From Patescibacteria group bacterium (GTDB lineage Bacteria > Patescibacteriota > Microgenomatia > UBA8517), in assembly GCA_025999275.1 (NCBI GenBank), contig AP024680.1:318393-382392 (forward strand): a stretch of 64,000 nt of DNA, written 5' to 3'. A program made the translations under genes and the position numbers. The notes under the pieces are model-generated. The model saw only the letters and a list, made by a program, of their open reading frames with translations, did no database searches and was not told the origin of the DNA. Position 1 is the first letter of the stretch; every line of letters begins with the position of its first letter. This document shows, piece by piece, positions 1,361 through 60,603 of the stretch.

Positions 1361-1981
1361 ATGTTTTTTGAGAGAATTATAGAAAGTTGCCAATCTAACT
1401 TTAATGGCAAAATAGAAGTTGTTTCTTCTTTGGCATGGGGAAAATATATTCGTGTTGGGGGAATTACTCAATCTGGTGGTGTTGTTGAAAAAATTTGGAG
1501 GAGTGTTTTCAAAAAGATTAAAGGCGATTTTAGAAAAATTTTGATTTTAGGTCTTGGAGGAGGGTCTGTGGCAAAGGTTTTGTGCAGCAGGTTTAAAAAA
1601 GCCAAGATAACAGGGGTGGAGATAGATCCTTTGATGGTAAATTTTGGGGAGAAGTATTTAGGCCTTGATAACTCTAAATTAAAAATTGAAATTGATGATG
1701 CCAAAAAGTGGTTTTTAGATAATAAAAAGAAGTTTGATCTTATTATTGTTGATATTTACCAAGGCAAAACTTATCCCCCCTTTTTTGAATCAGATTTGTT
1801 CCTTAAATCTTTAAAGTCCCATTTGGTTGTTGGGGGAATTGTTGTTTTTAACAGGCTTTATAGTTCCGATCTGACGGTTAGAAAATCAGCGGTTAAATTT
1901 GGTGAGAAATTGGAAAAAGAATTTAAAGAAGTGAACAGGATTTATCCTCTTGCCAATCTTATCTTTGCTTGCAGGATTTAG
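1361..1981 (+). CDS. Spermidine-synthase-like / class I methyltransferase-fold protein
   Basis: Gly-rich ILILGLGGGS, then VEIDPLMV and DLIIVDIY, resembling the spermine/spermidine synthase family. Weak recognition from motifs only. Confidence 0.4.
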   Translation: MFFERIIESCQSNFNGKIEVVSSLAWGKYIRVGGITQSGGVVEKIWRSVFKKIKGDFRKILILGLGGGSVAKVLCSRFKKAKITGVEIDPLMVNFGEKYLGLDNSKLKIEIDDAKKWFLDNKKKFDLIIVDIYQGKTYPPFFESDLFLKSLKSHLVVGGIVVFNRLYSSDLTVRKSAVKFGEKLEKEFKEVNRIYPLANLIFACRI

Positions 1982-2373
1982 CGGTAGTAAAAAGAACACT
2001 CTCCTGTTATTGGATCACAGCGAAAGACTTTTGTTTTATTTTGCTGATAAAGCTTTTGCTGTGGGAGTTTTCCTTTAATGCCTTTCCATTGTGGAATTTG
2101 GCTTTCTATCCATTTGTCAAATGTGGGGGAAACAGATGCTATTGAATAAAGAAAGGCCAAAACTATCAAAAGAAAGCTAAAAAGGTGAAAAATTGAGTTT
2201 TTGCCAAAAGCAATTTTTACTCCCCAAAGAATTATAATTAATGGCCAAAACTTAAAGAGAATTTGCCAGACATTCCAAGGCAGGACACCAAAATTGTTAA
2301 GAAGCAAGACAATACCCACTAAAACAAGGATCAAAGCATCGAAGATATCTTTTTCATCTGTTGTTTCGTTCAT
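1978..2373 (-). CDS. Hypothetical integral membrane protein
   Basis: 131-aa ORF with 3-4 hydrophobic helices. Its stop overlaps the downstream pspC-domain gene start, so the two look co-transcribed. Confidence 0.4.
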   Translation of the reverse strand: MNETTDEKDIFDALILVLVGIVLLLNNFGVLPWNVWQILFKFWPLIIILWGVKIAFGKNSIFHLFSFLLIVLAFLYSIASVSPTFDKWIESQIPQWKGIKGKLPQQKLYQQNKTKVFRCDPITGECSFYYR

Positions 2374-2801
2374 TTTTTAAATATGATTCCAAAGGCGATG
2401 ATAATCAAAACAATTGGCCAAAGCTTGAAGATTTGTTCAAGTCTGAAAATCCCAAAATTTTCAAACAAGAATAATAAACCAATTAAAGCAAGCATTAAGC
2501 CAAAAAGATACCTTCCTTCATCTTTTTTGGCATAGCTTCTGCCTTTCTCAATTAGATCTTGTGCTTCTTCTTTTATTTCTTCTGCATTTTCTTTTACCGA
2601 AACTTTTGTTTTTTTATCAGATGGGATAATGAGCCAAAGAACAAGATAAAGAAGGATGCCCGATCCGCCAAAGATGGTGATGAGTATGAAAATTATTCTT
2701 ATTAAAGTGGCGTCTATATCAAAATATTCGCCCAATCCACCACAAACTCCGCCGATAAGTCTATTTGTTTTTGAGCGTATTAATATTTTTTCTTTTGCCA
2801 T
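2370..2801 (-). CDS. pspC: PspC-domain membrane protein
   Basis: N-terminal LIRSKTNRLIGGVCGGLGEYFDIDATLIRIIFILITIFGGSGILLYLVLWLIIP matches the PspC domain consensus. A second TM lies at the C-terminus. Confidence 0.75.
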   Translation of the reverse strand: MAKEKILIRSKTNRLIGGVCGGLGEYFDIDATLIRIIFILITIFGGSGILLYLVLWLIIPSDKKTKVSVKENAEEIKEEAQDLIEKGRSYAKKDEGRYLFGLMLALIGLLFLFENFGIFRLEQIFKLWPIVLIIIAFGIIFKK

Positions 2802-2868
2802 TGTTTTGATTTTAAGCTTTTGTTAATTTTCTTTCAAGATATGAATTGAGGGAGAGTAACAGTAAGAT

Positions 2869-2990
2869 TAAACTATAGACAACTATCAATACATCGATGT
2901 ATTGATAGTAATTAGAAGTGATAACCGGTCTCGTAGACTAGTACACGGATACAATGGTGTAGTTGAAAAATTATGAATAATGAATTAAGG
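2869..2990 (+). repeat. Dispersed ~125-bp intergenic repeat, copy 1, containing a perfect 22-bp palindrome ATCAATACATCGATGTATTGAT (2885..2906)
   Basis: About 90% identical to 59532..59657. Lies in the 460-bp divergent region between the pspC-domain gene and the VKOR gene. Confidence 0.7.
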
Positions 2991-3263
2991 GGTATGAATT
3001 ATGGGAAGATTGAAGATAGTAGTAAGTAGAATGTAGTAAGGGAAAAGGATATAGATTTAGGATTTAAGAATTATGAATAAAATAATTCAAAAGTTAAAAT
3101 TCAAAAGTCAAAATTACAAGTTAAAAGCCAAAAGTTTTCTTAGATAATTAAATAATTTTAAATTTTGAATTGTATTTTTGAATTTTGCCTTTTGACTTTT
3201 GACTTAGATCTATTAGGTGTCAAGCTGTTTTTGACGAAGGTGCCAACCTAAGACACCCTTAAG

Positions 3264-3728
3264 GTGCCCTTTAGATTTTTTATGTCTGTTATGATAAAAT
3301 TAACTATGGTATTGGGGAAAAAAGTTTGGTTTTATTTAATTACTTTACTTTCTTTGGTGGGGATTATTTTGGCTTCTTATCTTCTTTATAATTTTTACAA
3401 CCCCAAACCAGTTTTGTTTTGTGACATTAATGATAAAGTAAATTGTCAGGCTGTAATTTCAGGGTCTCTTTCAACTTTTGCCGGTGTACCTGTTTCTTTG
3501 GTTGGACTTATTGGATATGGGGTAATTTTATTTGCGGGGTTAACCAAAAGGGCAAAACTTGCCTTTGGAGCATCTGTTTTTGGGATGATATTTTGTCTTC
3601 GGCTTACTATTTTGGAGATTTTCTTTATTAAAGTAATTTGTCCTGTTTGTCTTGTTTGTCAAATTGTAATGCTTCTTATTTTTATTATTTCTTCTTATAT
3701 TGTTTTTTCTACTAGGTTAAGAAACTAG
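3264..3728 (+). CDS. VKOR (vitamin K epoxide reductase)-family membrane thiol-disulfide oxidoreductase
   Basis: Polytopic membrane ORF with the loop cysteine pair CDINDKVNC and a TM CxxC (ICPVCLVC), the VKOR arrangement. The real start may be an internal Met, e.g. 3306 MVLGKK. Confidence 0.5.
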   Translation: MPFRFFMSVMIKLTMVLGKKVWFYLITLLSLVGIILASYLLYNFYNPKPVLFCDINDKVNCQAVISGSLSTFAGVPVSLVGLIGYGVILFAGLTKRAKLAFGASVFGMIFCLRLTILEIFFIKVICPVCLVCQIVMLLIFIISSYIVFSTRLRN

Positions 3729-5915: not shown

Positions 5916-8678
5916 ATGTTTAATTTTCTTTCCAAACTACTTGATCTTAACGCAAAAGAGGTTGATCGTTTAAAGAAGGTGGTTGAGAAAATCAATTCCT
6001 TTGCGCCGAAAGTAAAAAAGTTAAAAGATTCCGATTTTGTCAAAAAGACAGCCGAATATAAAGAAAGAATTAAAAAAGGCGAGTCTTTGGAGTCTATTTT
6101 ACCTGAGGCTTTTGCTTTGGTTCGTGAAGCCTCATTTAGGGCTATTGGTTTGCGTCATTTTGATGTTCAGATGATGGCTGCCGTTGCTCTTTTTGAAGGG
6201 AAAGTTGCTGAGCAGAAAACAGGTGAGGGAAAAACTCTTTCTGCTGTTCCTGCTTTATACCTTCGTGCTTTAATGGGGCGTGGTGCTCATTTGGTAACCG
6301 TTAATGATTATCTTGCCCGCCGTGATGCAGGTTGGAATGGGCCAACTTTTAATCTCCTTGGCCTTTCTGTTGGAGTGATAGTTCAGGAATCTAAATCTTT
6401 TGTTTTTGATCCTAACTTTTCTGATAAAAGCCATGGAGATGAAAGACTTGAGCACTTGAAACCTTCTTCTCGTCGGGAGGCTTATGAATGCGATATAACT
6501 TACGGGACCAATAACGAATTTGGTTTTGATTATCTTCGTGATAATATGGCTCAGTCTCTTTCTGAGATTGTTCAGTCTTCTCCTTTGGGTAAGGAAACAC
6601 AAGGCAAAAAAGGATTAGGAGAGCATTATTTTGCGGTAGTTGATGAAGTTGATTCAGTTTTAATTGATGAGGCACGTACTCCTCTTATAATCTCAGCTCC
6701 TGATACTGAGCCGACGCAAAAGTATTACCAATTTGCTCAGTTGGTGGAGAAATTAAATCCCGATACGGATTACAAAATAGACGAAAAACAAAGAACAGCA
6801 ACATTAACTGAGCATGGCATTGCCAGAGTTGAAAAGCTTCTTGGAATTCCAAACCTTTATGAGAAGGATTTTGAATCAATTCATCATATTGAAAACGCAC
6901 TTCGCGCCAAGACTCTTTTTTTGAAAGATCGCGACTACATAGTCAAGGATGATCAGGTGATAATTGTTGACGAATTTACAGGCCGTCTTATGTTTGGCAG
7001 ACGTTGGAGTGATGGTCTTCATCAGGCAGTTGAAGCAAAAGAGGGTGTTCCAATTCAGCAGGAATCAAAAACTTTGGCGACAATTTCTTTTCAAAATTAC
7101 TTTAGGATGTATGAGGTTTTGTCAGGTATGACTGGTACTGCAGCCACGGAGGCGGAGGAGTTTAAGAAAATTTACAAGCTTGATGTTGTGGTTATTCCAA
7201 CCCACAGGCCGATGATTAGAGTTGATCATCCGGATTTAATTTATAAGACTTTGCGGGCAAAATATGGGGCTATAGTTTCTGATATTGAAGAAAAGTACAA
7301 AAAAGGGCAGCCGGTTTTGGTTGGCACCACATCAATTGAAAAAAATGAAATAATAAGTGAGTACCTCAAAAGAAAAAAGATTCCTCATAATGTTTTAAAT
7401 GCCAAGAATCACGAAAAAGAGGCGCAGATTATAGCCAATGCAGGTAGAGTATCTGCGGTTACTGTTGCTACAAATATGGCTGGTCGTGGTGTTGATATTG
7501 TTTTGGGAGGTGCTGTTCCTGAAAGGCCGGCTGATGTTGCTCCTGAAAAATGGGCTAAGTCAAAAGAAATGGAAAAATGGCAAAAAGAGCATGATAAAGT
7601 GGTTAAGCTTGGCGGTCTTTATGTTATAGGAACAGAGAGGCATGAATCAAGAAGAATTGACAACCAGCTTCGAGGTAGGTCTGGAAGACAGGGTGACCCC
7701 GGCTCTTCTAGGTTTTATCTTTCTCTTGAGGATGATTTGATGCGTATTTTTGGTGGAGATCAGATTAAATCATTAATGGATAGGCTTTCTATTCCTGAGG
7801 ATCAGCCGATTGAAAATAAGTTGGTTTCAAAGGCAATAGAGCAGGCGCAAGTTAAGGTTGAAGGCTTTAATTTTGATATTAGAAAAAGCGTTGTTGAATA
7901 TGATGATGTAGCCAATCAGCAAAGAGAGGTTATTTACAGATTAAGACGTAAAGTTTTGATGGCTGAAAGTCTTAAAGATGAAGTTCTTGGAAAATTGAAG
8001 AAGAAGATTCAAAAAATTGTTGATTTTTCTTTCTCTTTTGCTGAAGGTAGGGAGAGTGAGATTGATTATGATTATATTTTATCTGGAGTCCTGGAAATTG
8101 TTCCTTTTGATGATGCTTCAAAAGAAAGTTTCAAGAGAAAATTGCTTGAACTAAAAAATGATTCTGAAATAAGAGAATTTTTGGAAAAAGTTATTCTTGA
8201 TATTTATGAGGCAAGAAGAAAACAGTATGGAGATGAGATATCAAATCAGATTGATAAGTTTGCTTACCTTTCTTCAATTGACCATTTTTGGGTTGAGCAC
8301 ATTGATTATTTGGATAGCCTTCGTGAGAATGTTAGGCTTCAGGCTTATGCACAAAAGGATCCGTTGGTTGAGTTTAAAAATGAGGCTTATAATTCTTTTG
8401 AGAATTTGCTTGAGAGAATTGATGACGAACTGGCAAGAAGGATATTTAGAATTGGTGTTGCTGAAAGGCCACAGGAGATTCCTATAGATCAGGCTCAGAC
8501 CAATGTTGATAGGTCAGATGCAATGGGTCTTGCTGGTGGAGAGGGTATTTTGCCGTCAAATAAGAGTTCGCAATCTCAAGTTACTCATTCGAGGAAAATT
8601 GGCCGTAACGATCCTTGTTGGTGCGGCTCGGGAAAGAAGTGGAAGAAATGCCACTATCCGCAATTGCCGACTGGTTGA
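5916..8678 (+). CDS. secA: Preprotein translocase ATPase SecA
   Basis: 920 aa. DEAD-motor motifs are present (MGRGAHLVTVNDYLARRD, VDEVDSVLIDEARTPLIIS, TNMAGRGVDIVLGG), and the C-terminal zinc finger is CWCGSGKKWKKCH. Confidence 0.95.
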   Translation: MFNFLSKLLDLNAKEVDRLKKVVEKINSFAPKVKKLKDSDFVKKTAEYKERIKKGESLESILPEAFALVREASFRAIGLRHFDVQMMAAVALFEGKVAEQKTGEGKTLSAVPALYLRALMGRGAHLVTVNDYLARRDAGWNGPTFNLLGLSVGVIVQESKSFVFDPNFSDKSHGDERLEHLKPSSRREAYECDITYGTNNEFGFDYLRDNMAQSLSEIVQSSPLGKETQGKKGLGEHYFAVVDEVDSVLIDEARTPLIISAPDTEPTQKYYQFAQLVEKLNPDTDYKIDEKQRTATLTEHGIARVEKLLGIPNLYEKDFESIHHIENALRAKTLFLKDRDYIVKDDQVIIVDEFTGRLMFGRRWSDGLHQAVEAKEGVPIQQESKTLATISFQNYFRMYEVLSGMTGTAATEAEEFKKIYKLDVVVIPTHRPMIRVDHPDLIYKTLRAKYGAIVSDIEEKYKKGQPVLVGTTSIEKNEIISEYLKRKKIPHNVLNAKNHEKEAQIIANAGRVSAVTVATNMAGRGVDIVLGGAVPERPADVAPEKWAKSKEMEKWQKEHDKVVKLGGLYVIGTERHESRRIDNQLRGRSGRQGDPGSSRFYLSLEDDLMRIFGGDQIKSLMDRLSIPEDQPIENKLVSKAIEQAQVKVEGFNFDIRKSVVEYDDVANQQREVIYRLRRKVLMAESLKDEVLGKLKKKIQKIVDFSFSFAEGRESEIDYDYILSGVLEIVPFDDASKESFKRKLLELKNDSEIREFLEKVILDIYEARRKQYGDEISNQIDKFAYLSSIDHFWVEHIDYLDSLRENVRLQAYAQKDPLVEFKNEAYNSFENLLERIDDELARRIFRIGVAERPQEIPIDQAQTNVDRSDAMGLAGGEGILPSNKSSQSQVTHSRKIGRNDPCWCGSGKKWKKCHYPQLPTG

Positions 8679-14970: not shown

Positions 14971-15537
14971 TTGTGCAAATATTTTTGCGTGGAGGAAAAG
15001 CAGGAGGAATTAAAAGTTAATGTAGGTCTTTTGGTTTTTTTATTTTTGATTTTTGGGGCTTTTGTGGCTGTTATGATCGGCTTTGGTAGTAAGGGTGAAA
15101 GTCAAATACAGCCTTCGCCAACGCCAGAAAATGAATTGAAACTAAATCTTGGGGGACAGCAGGAATCGGTGTCTCAAGTCCCTCAAAATCAAATTGCAAA
15201 TCAGAATCAACTAATGGTGGGATTCAGAGTGGAAGATATGAAAATAGGTGATGGGGAAGAAGCTCAATCTGGAAAGAAGCTGACTGTTAACTATGTAGGT
15301 ACCCTTATTGACGGGACAAAGTTTGACAGCTCTTATGATCGAGGCCAGCCTTTTTCTTTTACCCTGGGTGCTGGGCAGGTTATTGAAGGTTGGGAAAAAG
15401 GCCTTTTGGGTATGAAAGTTGGTGGTAAAAGAAGGCTATTTATTCCCCCTGAAATGGGTTATGGGGAAAGACAGGTGGGAAACATTCCTCCAAATTCCGC
15501 TTTAATCTTTGAGGTTGAGCTTCTTTCGGTTGAGTAG
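14971..15537 (+). CDS. FKBP-type peptidyl-prolyl cis-trans isomerase with N-terminal membrane anchor
   Basis: C-terminal FKBP domain (VNYVGTLIDGTKFDSSYDRGQPFSFTLGAGQVIEGWEKGLLGMKVGGKRRLFIPPEMGYG). An N-terminal TM is present. A TAG stop sits inside the terminator hairpin. Confidence 0.8.
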   Translation: MCKYFCVEEKQEELKVNVGLLVFLFLIFGAFVAVMIGFGSKGESQIQPSPTPENELKLNLGGQQESVSQVPQNQIANQNQLMVGFRVEDMKIGDGEEAQSGKKLTVNYVGTLIDGTKFDSSYDRGQPFSFTLGAGQVIEGWEKGLLGMKVGGKRRLFIPPEMGYGERQVGNIPPNSALIFEVELLSVE

Positions 15538-15558
15538 GACAGGGTCGGACCCTGTCCT
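15536..15558. terminator. GC-rich palindromic hairpin, family A (AGGACAGGGTCGGACCCTGTCCT)
   Basis: Perfect 9-bp stem with a 3-nt loop placed exactly at the stop of the FKBP gene. The same 21-mer recurs at 18048 and 34672. Confidence 0.5.
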
Positions 15559-18047: not shown

Positions 18048-18068
18048 GGACAGGGTCGGACCCTGTCC
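18048..18068. terminator. GC-rich palindromic hairpin, family A
   Basis: GGACAGGGTCGGACCCTGTCC lies immediately after the Clp-like gene stop. It was translated as the spurious N-terminus (MDRVGPCPV) of the next ORF in the track. Confidence 0.5.
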
Positions 18069-20411: not shown

Positions 20412-20897
20412 ATGGATGAGAATCAAGTTTCAATAAACCAATCAAATACTAATAACAATCAGTCGTCTGTTGAAAAACCGATGTTGGGGAAAGTTACTTC
20501 CAGTTCTTCTAAAAATTTGATTATGATTACGCTTGCAGTTTTTGTTGTTGGGATGGGAATCTTTACTGGTTGGATTATCTCAGGAGGTTTGAAAGGAAAG
20601 CCAAAAACATCAACTTCTGAAGGGCAAGTTGTCAAAACTAGTAAAGAAGCTGGGGTAAGCGACGAGAAAACTTTTAAAGATACAGCTACTGGTGTTTTGA
20701 AACAGGGAGGTGTTAATGGTGAAGGAACTCACCATTTGGAAAGAGAAGGTGGTCCTTCTCAATATGTTTATTTGACTTCTTCTGTGATTGATCTTGATTC
20801 TTTTATAGATAAAAAGGTGCAGGTTTGGGGGGAAACAATATCGGCCGCCAAAGCTGGTTGGTTTATGGATGTTGGTAAAGTCAAAGTTCTTGAGTGA
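20412..20897 (+). CDS. Hypothetical membrane-anchored protein
   Basis: Asn/Gln-rich N-terminus, one TM, then a ~100-aa exported domain. No known motif. Confidence 0.4.
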   Translation: MDENQVSINQSNTNNNQSSVEKPMLGKVTSSSSKNLIMITLAVFVVGMGIFTGWIISGGLKGKPKTSTSEGQVVKTSKEAGVSDEKTFKDTATGVLKQGGVNGEGTHHLEREGGPSQYVYLTSSVIDLDSFIDKKVQVWGETISAAKAGWFMDVGKVKVLE

Positions 20898-20915
20898 CAA
20901 GGTCCGTCCTTGTCA
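20895..20915. terminator. GC-rich palindromic hairpin, family B (TGACAAGGTCCGTCCTTGTCA)
   Basis: 8-bp stem with a 5-nt loop overlapping the TGA stop, followed by a T-rich run. The identical 21-mer recurs at 33039. Confidence 0.55.
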
Positions 20916-20963
20916 TTATTTCTCTTCTTGTTAAGCTTTCCAAAATTTAGTAATCTTAAGTTA

Positions 20964-23735: not shown

Positions 23736-23771
23736 TTCCACGCCGGGCTTGGAATAGCTTCGCAAGCCGGG
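23736..23771 (+). repeat. REP-like GC-rich imperfect palindrome, copy 1 (TTCCACGCCGGGCTTGGAATAGCTTCGCAAGCCGGG)
   Basis: Identical 36-mer to 36635..36670. Lies just after the stop of the FtsEX-associated peptidase gene. Confidence 0.7.
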
Positions 23772-23841
23772 ATTATTGAATTAAATTTCCTATCGTTTTA
23801 TTGCTGATTTAGGATGTGTTATAAATAAAGTAGCTAAAAAA

Positions 23842-32321: not shown

Positions 32322-33041
32322 TTGGTAAGAAAAAAATACAAAAGAATACTTCTTAAACTCACAGGTGAATTGTTTGGTGACAAGTTTGGTAAAGGCCTTG
32401 ATTTTGCCTCAGTTGATAGAATAGCTAGACAGATTATAAATATTCACAAAAATACCGGTCTTGAATTGGCTATTGTTGTTGGTGGTGGGAATATTTTTAG
32501 AGGAAGAGAGAGGGCATCTGATGTTGATGAGGTCACTGCTGATTATATGGGTATGCTTGCAACTGTTATTAATGGTTTGGCTTTGCAGGAGTCTTTGGAA
32601 AGACAGGGAGTTGAGACGCGAATGATGACGGCTTTTGAAATAAAAGCGGTGGCTGAGCCTTATATTAGAAGAAGAGCAATTAGGCATCTTGAGAAGGGTA
32701 GAATTGTTATTCTAACTGCAGGTGTTGGCAGTCCATTTTTTACTACAGATTCAGCTGCTGCTTTGCGTGCGGTTGAGCTTAAATGTGATATTGTTTTCAA
32801 AGCAACGGATGTTGATGGTGTGTATTCTGCAGATCCTCAAAAGGATCCCAAGGCAAAACTCTACAAGAGAATTTCTTTTGATAAGGCTCTTAAAGAGGAC
32901 TTGCAAGTTATGGATGCAACTGCTTTTGCGATTTGTCGTAAAAATAAAATGCCAATTTTTGTTTTTAATATTAAAAAACTCGATAAAATTTCCTCTATCG
33001 TTTTAGGAAAAGAGGATGTCTTTGGTACTTTAGTTGGTTGA
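32322..33041 (+). CDS. pyrH: UMP kinase
   Basis: KRILLKLTGE at the N-terminus, IVVGGGNIFRG, and DSAAALRAVE, matching the amino-acid kinase fold of PyrH. Confidence 0.9.
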   Translation: MVRKKYKRILLKLTGELFGDKFGKGLDFASVDRIARQIINIHKNTGLELAIVVGGGNIFRGRERASDVDEVTADYMGMLATVINGLALQESLERQGVETRMMTAFEIKAVAEPYIRRRAIRHLEKGRIVILTAGVGSPFFTTDSAAALRAVELKCDIVFKATDVDGVYSADPQKDPKAKLYKRISFDKALKEDLQVMDATAFAICRKNKMPIFVFNIKKLDKISSIVLGKEDVFGTLVG

Positions 33042-33059
33042 CAAGGTCCGTCCTTGTCA
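33039..33059. terminator. GC-rich palindromic hairpin, family B (bidirectional position)
   Basis: TGACAAGGTCCGTCCTTGTCA incorporates the pyrH TGA and sits between convergent pyrH and the GT-C gene. Confidence 0.55.
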
Positions 33060-34538
33060 GTTGATAATTTGATATAAAAGTAAGGAATCTGTTGGGTTTT
33101 CTTTCCATGGAGGCTTGGGAATCTCTTTTATTAAGTTTAGATTGGGATTTTGAACAAGGTTTGATTTGTGGATTACAAAATAAACAGGTTTTTCTTTAAG
33201 TTTTTCATAAACATAAGATTCGATTTGTGAGCTACTATACCAAACTTCAATATTTTTGTTTTTGCCGATATAAATCTCAAGTCCGTCAGGCAATGTTCCA
33301 AAGGCACCAGCTGTAACAACTAAAATTTTTTGATCTTTTGCTTTCTCTTTTAGAAAATTAGCCATTTCTTTTATTCCATAACCTGCTGTCCATCCTTCAA
33401 AGTACCCATCTTTTTCTTTTTTAGGTAGATTGGCTTGCCATGGTTTTGTAATAAGCTGATAATCAAAAATTATTGCTGGGATTAAGACCAGAGTGGTTAG
33501 AGTGCTAAAAACAGCCTTTCTGTTTTTGGCTATTTTTTCTGATATTTCTGCAAAAGACCAACTGGCAAGAAAGATGAATGTAACTATACTTGGTAGAATA
33601 TATCTTGCCGTGTAGGTTTTAAGAAGAGCAGTAAGTATAATGAAAGGAATAGCTCCCCAAAGGAAAATTATTATGTTTTCCTTTTTCTTTTTGTAAAGGG
33701 AGAGAAAAATTGCAAATATAAAAGTTAAGAAAACAGGCCAAGTCATCAATTTGGTAAGAAAAACAAAACCTTCTTTGGTGTTGCCTATAAATGGATCAAG
33801 TGGTTTCTCCCAGAGTCGCGATATGGGGAAATGATAATACTCATTTCTTTTTCCAAGTTGTTTGAAATAGGGGCTAATTCTAAGTGAATTGTATAGGCAC
33901 AATCCTATTATTGCTGATAAAGTAAGTCCCAAAATTGATTTTGTTAGTTTCTTTTTATTTTTAAAGTCGGCTTTTATTAAAGCTAGTGGAAGTAGAAAGA
34001 AATTAAACATTCCGGGTGTTTTGGTTAGTATTGAAGCTCCTAAGATTAGTCCTAGAAGTATTATATTTTTGGCTGACGGTTTTTCTACCGTCTCAAGAGC
34101 AAGAATTAGTGACCAAAATGAAAAAGCAGCAAGCATCGAATCGGTTAATGCCATTCGATCAAAAAATACCAAAAATGGAGTAAAGGTAAAAAATAGAGCA
34201 GCAACCAAAGCTGTTTTTGGTTGGAAATACCTTTTGGAGAGATAGTATGCTCCATAAAGTGTGAGAAGGCTTATTAAGATTGAGACTATTCTTCCTGCCA
34301 GAAGAGGATCGGATATAATTTTTAAGCTTGGCACAACCAACCACATAAATAGTGGAGTTTTACCATCGACAAGTGGAATAAATAAATTAATTTTGGGATT
34401 TTCGATGATTTTTTGCGCCCAATGGATATAGATTGCCTCATCACAAAATACTGGCTGTAGATTGAGGTTGTAGGTTCTGATCAGAAGGTAAAATGTGATG
34501 ATTAAAATGGCAGATAAAAAAAGTTTTTTGTGCTTCAT
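33057..34538 (-). CDS. GT-C-fold glycosyltransferase (ArnT/PMT family, GT39/GT83-like)
   Basis: Polytopic, with the N-terminal loop motif VFCDEAIYIHWAQKI (DE..Y) characteristic of ArnT/PMT-type lipid-linked-sugar transferases. 493 aa. Confidence 0.6.
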   Translation of the reverse strand: MKHKKLFLSAILIITFYLLIRTYNLNLQPVFCDEAIYIHWAQKIIENPKINLFIPLVDGKTPLFMWLVVPSLKIISDPLLAGRIVSILISLLTLYGAYYLSKRYFQPKTALVAALFFTFTPFLVFFDRMALTDSMLAAFSFWSLILALETVEKPSAKNIILLGLILGASILTKTPGMFNFFLLPLALIKADFKNKKKLTKSILGLTLSAIIGLCLYNSLRISPYFKQLGKRNEYYHFPISRLWEKPLDPFIGNTKEGFVFLTKLMTWPVFLTFIFAIFLSLYKKKKENIIIFLWGAIPFIILTALLKTYTARYILPSIVTFIFLASWSFAEISEKIAKNRKAVFSTLTTLVLIPAIIFDYQLITKPWQANLPKKEKDGYFEGWTAGYGIKEMANFLKEKAKDQKILVVTAGAFGTLPDGLEIYIGKNKNIEVWYSSSQIESYVYEKLKEKPVYFVIHKSNLVQNPNLNLIKEIPKPPWKENPTDSLLLYQIIN

Positions 34539-34671
34539 TTTTATAATAATACCATTTTATAAATCTGCAACCCAAAAATTTTGGGGTAAATTAGACAAGA
34601 TAGATCTGGAAATTGTGGCTATTAACTTGATATTTATTTGTAGTTTATTGACAAGGTCTGTTCTTTTCAAT

Positions 34672-34692
34672 GGACAGGGTCGGACCCTGTCC
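34672..34692. terminator. GC-rich palindromic hairpin, family A, preceded by a degenerate family B copy
   Basis: GGACAGGGTCGGACCCTGTCC at 34672. At 34649..34671, TTGACAAGGTCTGTTCTTTTCAA is a decayed B-type copy. Located between the GT-C gene start region and tRNA-Ala. Confidence 0.45.
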
Positions 34693-34698
34693 AATTTG

Positions 34699-36634: not shown

Positions 36635-36670
36635 TTCCACGCCGGGCTTGGAATAGCTTCGCAAGCCGGG
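36635..36670 (+). repeat. REP-like palindrome, copy 2 (left flank of RAYT gene)
   Basis: TTCCACGCCGGGCTTGGAATAGCTTCGCAAGCCGGG, identical to copy 1 at 23736. Confidence 0.7.
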
Positions 36671-36680
36671 TTTTTGCATT

Positions 36681-37366: not shown

Positions 37367-37403
37367 GTATTTAAAACCCGGCTTGTCAACATATTTCCAA
37401 GCC
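37367..37403 (-). repeat. REP-like palindrome, copy 3 (inverted; right flank of RAYT gene)
   Basis: The reverse complement reads TTCCACGCCGGGCTTGGAAATATGTTGACAAGCCGGG. Both arms match copies 1 and 2, and the central loop has diverged. Confidence 0.65.
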
Positions 37404-37439
37404 CGGCGTGGAATTGATATGTTTGGTATAATAGTCTTT

Positions 37440-59064: not shown

Positions 59065-59344
59065 AGAGTTAATAAACGATTTTTTGAATAATTAGTTGGT
59101 GTATATTTGATAACTATATTTCACCATTTTAAAAATGTAATATTTTAGATTTGTGGATTTGGAGTTTTCTTTTGCAAACTGTTTTGAGTCTTTTGGTTTA
59201 TCAGCCGTTAATTTTCTGAGTTTAGGAATAATCAAGAATTGATTTTACTGTGGTATTATTTTTAAGTTTTGTCTTTTGTAGCTTTGCAGTTGGTAAAATT
59301 TTTACCTTTCACCTTTTAACTTTTAGCTCTTGCCTTATTTGTTG

Positions 59345-59417: not shown

Positions 59418-59531
59418 GATAGTTTATTTTAGCATAAAGGTGCTAATAAGAAAAAAATGAATTATGAATTAAGGGACATGAATTATGGGTGTAAGGTATA
59501 GAAACCTCGTATCTAACTAATACCTATAAAC

Positions 59532-59657
59532 TAAACTATAGACAACTATCAATACATCGATGTATTGATAGTAATTAGCACATAACCGGTTCAGTAGACT
59601 AGTACACGGATACGATAGTGTAGTTAAGAATTATGAACTGTGAATAATGAATTAAGG
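59532..59657 (+). repeat. Dispersed ~125-bp intergenic repeat, copy 2, with the 22-bp palindrome at 59548..59569
   Basis: Same orientation as copy 1. Lies in the 670-bp divergent region between tRNA-Glu and greA. The GAATTATGAATTAAGG sub-motif is additionally repeated at 59457..59495. Confidence 0.7.
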
Positions 59658-60138
59658 GAAATGGGAATTAAAATATCTAGATTCTAATTTCTAATATCTA
59701 AACAGAAATTAATAATTCAAAAGTACTAGACCTAGGCTGGTTGTCTTTGGGTTAACAATTCAAAATTTAAAACTAATTATAATTATCTAAGTGAACTTTT
59801 GACTTTTAACTTGTAATTTTGACTTTTGAGTTTTAACTTTTGAATTATTAAGTTTCGTTTAGAGTTTAGTGCTTAGAATTTAGAGTTTCTAGATTATTTC
59901 CCTTTCTAATAATTTGAAACTTTTACCTTCTTGCCTTTACTTTGTTAGTAGGTGCCCTAGCTTTATTTTTTGGATATTATTTGATATAATATTGCAAGCT
60001 AGTGAAGTCAGGCTTCTTTTTAATTGTTTCTTTTTGATATTTTTTGAAGTATTGACAGTAGCGTAACTAGCTTTTACAATCCCTTTGTATTATTGTTCAG
60101 CCGTTTTTCAAAGCGGCATTATTTTTTTAAAAGTATTT

Positions 60139-60603
60139 ATGTCTAATTTAAAAGCAACATTTACCAAGGAGGGTTTTGAGGCTCTTAACAAGGAGCTTAA
60201 GGTTTTGGTGGAAGAAAAGCGACCAAAGTTAGTGGAGAGGTTGGCTAATGCTCGTTCTCAAGGAGATCTTTCTGAAAATAGTGATTATCAAAATGCAAGG
60301 GAGGAGCTTGATTTTTTGGATGGAAAAATAGCTGAGTTGGAAGAGTTAATTAAAAATGCAAGAATAGTGGATTCTAAGACTGATTCAAAAACTGTGAGTG
60401 TGGGTAATTCAGTTAAAGTAAAAATAAATGGACAAGAGACTGTTTTTTCTATTGTTGGAGAGTGGGAAGCAAATCCGGCTGAAAAGAAAATTTCTTTATC
60501 TTCTCCTTTGGGTCAAGCTTTAGCAGGTAAGACTAAAGGGGATAAAGTTGAAGTCGAAGCTCCAGCAGGAACAATGATTTACGAGATTGTTGATATAAGT
60601 TAG
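60139..60603 (+). CDS. greA: Transcription elongation factor GreA
   Basis: N-terminal coiled coil (LTKEGFEALNKELKVLVEEKRPKLVERL, SENSDYQNAREEL) and a C-terminal FKBP-like domain. Start at the Met at 60139. Confidence 0.85.
   Translation: MSNLKATFTKEGFEALNKELKVLVEEKRPKLVERLANARSQGDLSENSDYQNAREELDFLDGKIAELEELIKNARIVDSKTDSKTVSVGNSVKVKINGQETVFSIVGEWEANPAEKKISLSSPLGQALAGKTKGDKVEVEAPAGTMIYEIVDIS

Follow-up and report, generated by a model that had tools for sequence, protein, structure and literature searches.

Two long non-coding spacers of a Patescibacteria chromosome share a block of DNA that contains a perfect palindrome. What recognizes or maintains this palindrome? Patescibacteria cannot be cultivated by themselves, and next to nothing has been established about their control of transcription or about the proteins bound to their chromosomes. 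Here we describe the repeat in a stretch of 64,000 nucleotides (contig AP024680.1, positions 318,393 to 382,392; hereafter the window) and its relatives in other genomes, whose contigs carry L numbers. With a probability of roughly 0.55, as judged from sequence comparisons, the palindromic dyad is the predicted cognate site of a Patescibacteria TrpR-fold protein, through which this protein would repress the gene that encodes it; the two copies in the window would be extra sites.

Two repeated blocks in array-filled spacers

The first-pass annotation had described a repeat of ~125 bp with about 90% identity between two copies in the same orientation, and closer comparison bears this out. Block A (2869-2977, plus strand) and block B (59532-59637, plus strand) lie 56 kb apart; 59532-59578 matches 2869-2915 at 47 of 47 positions, 59582-59630 is 86% identical to 2921-2969, and blastn aligns the two blocks at 89.9% identity over 109 nt, or at 84.5% over 142 nt. 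The elements of block A follow in the order TAAACT (a -10-like hexamer, 2869-2874), 7 nt, the palindrome, AATTAG, ATAACCGGT, GTAGACTAGTACACGGATAC (2933-2952) and GTGTAGTT, and block B repeats this order, with TAAACT at 59532-59537 and the 20-mer at 59594-59613. The palindrome, formerly given as 22 bp long, is indeed perfect but extends over 28 bp, ACTATCAATAC-ATCGAT-GTATTGATAGT, with arms and centre of 11-6-11, at 2882-2909 in copy A and 59545-59572 in copy B. A search that tolerated as many as 3 mismatches located precisely two copies each of its 22-mer and of the 20-mer GTAGACTAGTACACGGATAC in the window, and none in shuffled sequences. Copy A folds as a hairpin of -13.8 kcal/mol (z -5.35); the block outside the palindrome folds weakly (z -1.4 to -2.0), and on both strands only the palindrome folds consistently.

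The 60-90 nt downstream of the dyad are conserved across three copies. A metagenome scan with GTAGACTAGTACACGGATAC produced one unrelated high-G+C match (L007) and no relatives of that part of the block. Within the second block, ACTAGTACA, which is absent from the other genomes, resembles what we take to be a half-site of the E. coli trp operator. This likeness also draws on the trp motif quoted in PMC9413887.

Several candidate explanations of the block were rejected. Seen by eye, it starts with TAAACTATAG... and ends with ...GTAGTTNAAGAATTAT, which are not inverted repeats, and there is no clear target duplication, which speaks against the MITE considered earlier. Small open frames were dismissed as well: the longest that is conserved, ITG(L/S)VD, has 7 codons and, by eye, lacks a start codon in copy B. 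So was the idea that a sigma-70 promoter fires outward from the window dyads: by eye, copy A has 8/12 matches, the fit of copy B and of its counterpart in the relative L015 is poor, and the scan called none.

Both blocks lie between divergently oriented genes, as had been noted. At site A these are PspC/LiaF on the minus strand and VKOR on the plus strand; at site B, Lon is followed by tRNA-Glu(CTC) on the minus strand and then by GreA and LysRS on the plus strand. The gap lengths given for them, 460 and 670 bp, need correction: homologue lengths and alignments make 3307 the likely start of VKOR and 60139 that of GreA, with which the non-coding gaps measure ~505 and ~721 bp. The GreA frame as listed (60085) begins at TTG, and all close homologues have 152-154 aa, so the real start is probably near 60139. 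Nowhere else in the window does the DNA run so far without an open frame of 100 codons: 429 and 1002 bp in these spacers, and 289 bp in the next longest case. Repeated sub-motifs had been reported from both regions, and ATGAATT[AG][AT]GGG, with at most 1 mismatch, was found six times in the window, every time within the two gaps.

Much of this DNA is made of short tandem units. On the plus strand, 7-nt arrays with the units AATTATG and AGTAGTA occupy 2969-3040, where ATGAATT[AG][AT]GGG occurs at 2980 and 2994, with a further occurrence at 2841; a pair of ATGAATTATGAATTAAGGGACATGAATTATGGG motifs precedes block B on the plus strand (59457-59489), and a third copy follows at 59647-59658. An A+T-rich module of 7/14-nt arrays at 3081-3173, missed at first reading, recurs inverted at site B (59849-59755) with 92% identity, and pairs with 3154-3205 as a long imperfect hairpin (-29.3 kcal/mol, z -4.8). 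At their right ends, the two inserts share nothing beyond AGGTGCCCT. More generally, tandem arrays of 7-nt units, or of their 14/21-nt multiples, fill the long spacers of these Patescibacteria, both in the window (2969-3205, 59300-59336, 59457-59888) and in relatives (L013 9645-9826, L010 6694-7065, L016 1770-1868, L003 6826-6882, L012 14071-14111). Each array has its own unit sequence, a dyad may be present or absent, and close strains differ in them by gain or loss of 50-200-bp pieces. Cyanobacterial STRR arrays are likewise heptamer arrays; those seen here in the long spacers around dyads differ from STRR in having A+T-rich units that vary from array to array, in belonging to another phylum, and in occurring also where the dyad is absent (L013).

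The window dyads do not overlap the promoter-like sites of their neighbours. Such sites were found for pspC at 2837-2809 and for greA at 60052-60080 (TTGACA-17-TACAAT); the tRNA-Glu promoter, located by eye, adjoins its gene and is conserved in L013. The dyads are 45 to ~100 nt or more upstream of the -35 hexamers of pspC and tRNA-Glu, and 400-500 nt away from VKOR and greA. TAAACT stands 7 nt upstream of both window dyads and 1 nt upstream of that in L003, and therefore some rightward transcript may start there.

Comparison with close relatives indicates how young this arrangement is. In L015 (97% GreA identity) the dyad of site B is kept as an orthologous copy at 725-752, and L015 712-816 is 89.6% identical to block A. 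This strain lacks window 59635-59841, a 207-bp segment that contains the inverted array module (59755-59849) and is flanked by the direct repeat GAATTAT; slippage in array DNA fits this repeat equally well as a target duplication. Instead, L015 carries upstream of the core an extra heptamer module (551-652) that resembles site A 2973-3081 with 82% identity. In a more distant relative (L013, 82% GreA identity), site B has heptamer arrays and no dyad, and at site A the VKOR-PspC spacer is just 63 bp long (L021 9938-10000). By eye, it aligns with window 2802-2840 plus 3283-3306, so the 442-bp non-coding segment around block A (2841-3282) is extra. Throughout 40 kb of that relative (L013 and L021; 82-84% protein identity) no dyad was detected. 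As the dyads are absent at both orthologous sites, any regulon is not conserved between these lineages; both window copies thus belong to young, fast-changing non-coding DNA. On these alignments, both sit in lineage-specific, rapidly rearranging inserts of 7-nt tandem arrays.

It is rather improbable that the repeat is simply DNA duplicated, or copied by gene conversion, from one junk spacer to the other, with no function of its own, and such an account could apply only outside the dyad. In its favour, this genome has just two known long copies, hypervariable array spacers gain and lose pieces of 50-200 bp between strains, and conservation across genomes outside the dyad ends within ~10 nt. 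The 60-90 nt rightward of the dyad could still have arisen in this way. The dyad itself, as described below, recurs in nine other contig sets, either unchanged or with compensated changes, in a fixed relation to one gene family. A simple segmental duplication, confined to these two sites and flanked by paralogous genes, had been named as a finding that would refute the first-pass reading; the flanking genes are not paralogous, and copies exist elsewhere.

A dyad family that brackets a TrpR-fold gene

A search for further genomic copies had been proposed as a check. The exact 22-mer was scanned against one genome per species (185,579 species) and was found in four stretches, three of them from MAGs labelled Patescibacteria/Woesebacteria and one labelled Gammaproteobacteria. 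All four hold 26-28 bp of the dyad in unrelated flanks. The 28-mer is identical in L003, L004, L005 and L015, and L006 has 27 of its 28 bases. Altogether, the dyad family was found in nine other Patescibacteria/Woesebacteria contig sets, as mostly perfect dyads of 20-34 bp with the consensus ACTAnnnATnnATCGATnnATnnnTAGT, in which the centre ATCGAT and two AT dinucleotides are invariant. There are three core types, ACATCGATGT, GAATCGATTC and TAATCGATTA, and the core type tracks the genome. Among 2.9 million viral contigs, a degenerate 18-base pattern of the family had no match, and neither had a half-degenerate one; the recurrence of the dyad among these genomes is therefore not due to chance, and the dyad is not carried by phages in the viral-contig collection scanned.

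The gene associated with the dyad encodes a protein of 150 aa with a TrpR fold. All eight loci that encode it have the gene bracketed by dyads, and six of them (L008, L010, L012, L016, L018, L019) were fetched by protein homology alone, with the dyad ignored. In each of the eight, one dyad is situated between the promoter and the ATG, and a second one, always perfect, follows the stop codon by 2-250 nt; in L004 and L005 this distance from the PF01371 (Trp_repressor) gene is 2-6 nt. The upstream dyad starts at the end of the -10 hexamer or a few bases from it and stops 0-5 nt before the ATG, filling the entire 5' UTR. In the consensus scan, promoter-like hexamer pairs of L005, L004 and L018 end 1 nt before the dyad; the L005 promoter, TTGACA-17-TATATT, has 11/12 matches, and its ATG comes 4 nt after the dyad. 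By eye, TAAACT abuts or overlaps the dyad in L008 and L010.

The protein matches Pfam PF01371 with E = 1e-9 to 2e-9, above the gathering score, and falls below the NCBIfam cut-offs both for TrpR and for YerC/YecD. An AlphaFold model built with 43 homologues has pLDDT 89, and every one of its best 42 PDB matches is a TrpR or HisR-like protein, with probability 1.00 and target TM 0.63-0.85 over the first ~100 residues. The C-terminal 50 residues form two helices that have no structural match, and domain and fold searches found no catalytic domain, HUH/Y1 included. In the four loci with the first, ACA core, ACATCGATGT, the sequence of the recognition helix is SVASW, and in the four others it is SVSSW, TVSAW or SISSW, a suggestive correlation between helix and core type that sets four loci against four and is confounded by phylogeny.

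In the Woesebacteria-like loci L004, L008, L010, L012 and L018, the TrpR-fold gene directly follows rplJ-rplL, at the end of the secE-nusG-rplKAJL cluster, and in most of them RimK/ATP-grasp genes converge on it.

The earlier remark that the flanking CDSs do not explain the repeat was correct, as tblastn detected no TrpR-like gene in the 64 kb, and the dyad-protein link therefore rests on other genomes. The dyad had been taken for the expected footprint of a dimeric HTH regulator. A TrpR-fold HTH gene bracketed at 8/8 loci, with the upstream dyad overlapping its promoter, agrees with this expectation and makes the dyad a putative site of that protein.

The following mechanism can be proposed. 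A TrpR-fold HTH protein specific to Patescibacteria would bind the dyads; at its own gene, one dimer or several in tandem would sit over the transcription start and exclude RNA polymerase, leading to autorepression, and the downstream dyad may act as a looping partner or as a high-affinity auxiliary site. The window copies would be additional sites of a protein encoded in some other part of the genome. At these copies, its predicted targets are the divergent neighbours, pspC-liaF/VKOR and tRNA-Glu/greA-lysS, or alternatively an unannotated rightward transcript starting just after TAAACT.

Known members of the family behave in a similar way. TrpR-family proteins bind palindromes of ~20 bp and often autoregulate via a site at their own promoter, and about half of the hisR genes carry their own site (PMC9413887). 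The protein described here shares with TrpR and HisR (YerC) the PF01371 fold and, with the dyad abutting the -10 hexamer of its own gene, the position of the putative site. It differs by its length of 150 aa, with the two-helix C-terminal extension of 50 aa and scores below both NCBIfam cut-offs. In addition, the site is longer (26-34 bp) and has the invariant centre ATCGAT, the dyad resembles neither the TrpR motif TGTAcTnGTnnACnAgTACA nor the HisR motif cacTTTAnnnnnnTAAAgtg, every copy of the gene has a second site behind it, and amino-acid biosynthesis genes are not nearby.

Symmetry of the dyad and competing readings

Over 22 distinct dyad sites, 83% of the cells are paired, and 11 of the 15 pairs change on both sides; the observed covariation score was reached by 0 of 500 shuffles. 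The five inner variable pairs hold Watson-Crick alternatives only, with no one-sided G-T changes. Compensated changes of the arms without G-T intermediates favour a constraint on double-stranded DNA or on a DNA hairpin over one on an RNA stem.

This bears on the possibility that the dyad acts in RNA, as a stem-loop of 12-14 bp at the 5' and 3' ends of transcripts that would serve as a stabiliser, a translational operator or a terminator, the window block of ~100 nt then being a small RNA or a leader with the hairpin at its start. Several features agree with this: the stem-loop is stable (z -5.4 to -7.6) and spans the whole 5' UTR and the 3' end at the TrpR-like loci, the window, L003, L004, L008 and L010 have a -10-like TAAACT 0-7 nt before it, the stem covaries, and the conservation of the downstream 60-90 nt in three copies would suit a transcript. 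We nevertheless consider it unlikely. Apart from the missing G-U pairs in the five inner positions of the 22 sites, the sequence is strictly identical on both strands, the fold beyond the palindrome is not better than in shuffles, and some copies lie inside CDSs or between convergent genes. There is no U-tract: the A+T-rich stem is followed by AATTAG, and the scan called no intrinsic terminator at either window copy. With Rfam 15 at the gathering threshold, only two tRNAs pass in the window, and a permissive search added below-threshold noise only (snR62, MIR8643, rseX). The small RNA envisaged by the first-pass annotation thus loses ground on three counts, the Rfam result, the weak fold outside the palindrome and the inner pairs without G-U; nor does the repeat lie in an annotated ncRNA of a known family, no Rfam match having been obtained.

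A second property of the symmetry is harder to reconcile with a simple operator. Positions that vary between sites of one genome stay perfectly symmetric in L005, L008 and L018; thus, L005 has TC/GA versus CT/AG, and L018 has three variants. Together with the invariant ATCGAT, such variation within a genome is not predicted by a plain operator model and would better suit a hairpin element. The symmetry could stem from recognition as a cruciform or hairpin, from correction of quasi-palindromes by template switching, which is an established mutational process, or from copying of whole dyads.

The layout around the TrpR-fold gene recalls the REP/RAYT systems (REPINs), in which a gene is characteristically flanked by two hairpin-forming palindromes. 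The dyad could be a selfish or domesticated element of this kind, spread or kept uniform as single-stranded DNA hairpins, with the TrpR-fold gene in the role of RAYT and the two window blocks as recent copies. We regard this as a minor but serious possibility, which is kept mainly because the variants within a genome remain perfectly symmetric. Like REPs, the dyads are short palindromes able to form hairpins and found mainly outside genes, and one particular gene has a copy on either side at 8/8 loci; moreover, the stem covaries around an invariant centre, and differences among sites of one genome are compensated. The distribution of copies fits as well: dyads present in the window lineage are missing at both orthologous sites of the relative, with its 63-bp spacer at site A, and modules have been shuffled between the two sites and between strains.

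Copies also occur inside CDSs. In L012, the dyad at 2406-2439 lies in frame within rnhB (1773-2579, minus strand), in a variable loop, where it encodes TLLLMNRFISSK and is followed by an insertion of 15-19 residues that is missing from two homologues; in L006, the dyad at 7279-7304 lies in frame inside a membrane-protein ORF (6593-7867, minus strand). Rickettsia palindromic elements (RPEs) resemble these two copies, in the RNase HII loop and in the membrane protein, in being in frame within genes; RPEs are lineage-restricted and 100-150 bp long, whereas here just the dyad of 26-34 bp is shared, and it is mostly found between genes. Elsewhere, dyads occupy a divergent spacer (L003) or the space between convergent genes (L019, 526-563).

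The REP-like interpretation is also in keeping with contigs that end within the dyad, as those of L001, L002 and L018 do (public short-read contigs; L001 1-97, L002 1-100, L018 13396-13421). Logan contigs with the window's own PspC stop inside the dyad, too. Such ends fit a repeat that breaks de Bruijn assemblies, and since dyad and array DNA break short-read assemblies, adjacent genes tend to sit at contig ends.

Against REP-like spread stands the protein itself, a TrpR fold with two C-terminal helices and without an HUH/Y1 or any other catalytic domain, whereas the gene flanked by REPs encodes a Y1/HUH transposase. The copy density appears low: away from the TrpR-fold gene, we counted ~5 dyads in ~175 kb that had not been selected for the dyad, or ~1 per 35 kb; tens to hundreds of extragenic copies are typical of a genome with REPs. 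REPs are species-specific, but here the sequence crosses genera, and several distinct genomes have the 28-mer in identical form (the window lineage plus four further contig sets derived from three MAGs). Finally, there is no conserved GTAG-type head, and perfect symmetry can be given by template-switch correction of quasi-palindromes without any mobility.

The partition or replication site that had been suggested as another alternative (a dif-like Xer site, an origin or a partition site) is very improbable. Sites of the dif type have 28 bp in an 11-6-11 layout, which is the format of the dyad, and the window dyads lie in long A+T-rich, repeat-laden spacers between divergent genes. Yet dif occurs once per replicon, at the terminus, where GC skew turns; in the window, GC skew is positive in 30 of the 32 2-kb bins over 64 kb and turns at neither copy, and there are two direct copies 56 kb apart. 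Pairs ~0.5 kb apart enclose one gene at eight loci, and Xer would excise the DNA between them. By eye, the arms are also unlike known dif arms.

Having weighed these alternatives, we return to the operator of a TrpR-fold protein as the preferred reading. A more novel reading is conceivable, though we hold it to be doubtful on present comparisons: the TrpR-fold gene and the perfect dyads around it may form a new palindrome-protein partnership of candidate-phyla-radiation bacteria, with a symmetry that is actively maintained. It might take the form of a REPIN-like element with a non-catalytic HTH protein as its partner, or that of a parS/matS-like architectural system, in which a small protein would mark ~20-30 hairpin-capable sites per genome. 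Active maintenance would then mean cruciform or hairpin recognition, or template-switch correction, and not ordinary operator selection.

Significance and other repeats of the window

No description of the dyad, of the dyad-protein pair or of a Patescibacteria TrpR-like regulon was found in the searchable literature, and the dyad with its protein looks like an undescribed regulator-site pair of a poorly known phylum. A defined DNA site together with a candidate binding protein, conserved in several lineages, is a directly testable pair, and the dyad motif can be used to predict targets of the protein across hundreds of metagenome-assembled genomes. From the strict compensated symmetry and the invariant centre a further possibility arises: the protein could recognise a hairpin or cruciform form of the sites, an uncommon mode for a protein with a TrpR fold.

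The window contains other dispersed repeats. Two families of G+C-rich hairpins have three copies each, GGACAGGGTCGGACCCTGTCC at 15536-15558, 18048-18068 and 34671-34693, and TGACAAGGTCCGTCCTTGTCA at 20887-20920, 33031-33064 and 34641-34674; one copy of each stands side by side next to tRNA-Ala. A 39-nt repeat, TTCCACGCCGGGCTTGGAATAGCTTCGCAAGCCGGG, occurs at 23736-23774 and, 12.9 kb away, at 36635-36673 with 97% identity, and an inverted partner of it lies at 37395-37425, 0.74 kb from the second site. Finally, the segment 42000-50000 has a G+C content of 0.28-0.30, versus 0.32-0.41 elsewhere in the window, and a strongly negative AT skew.
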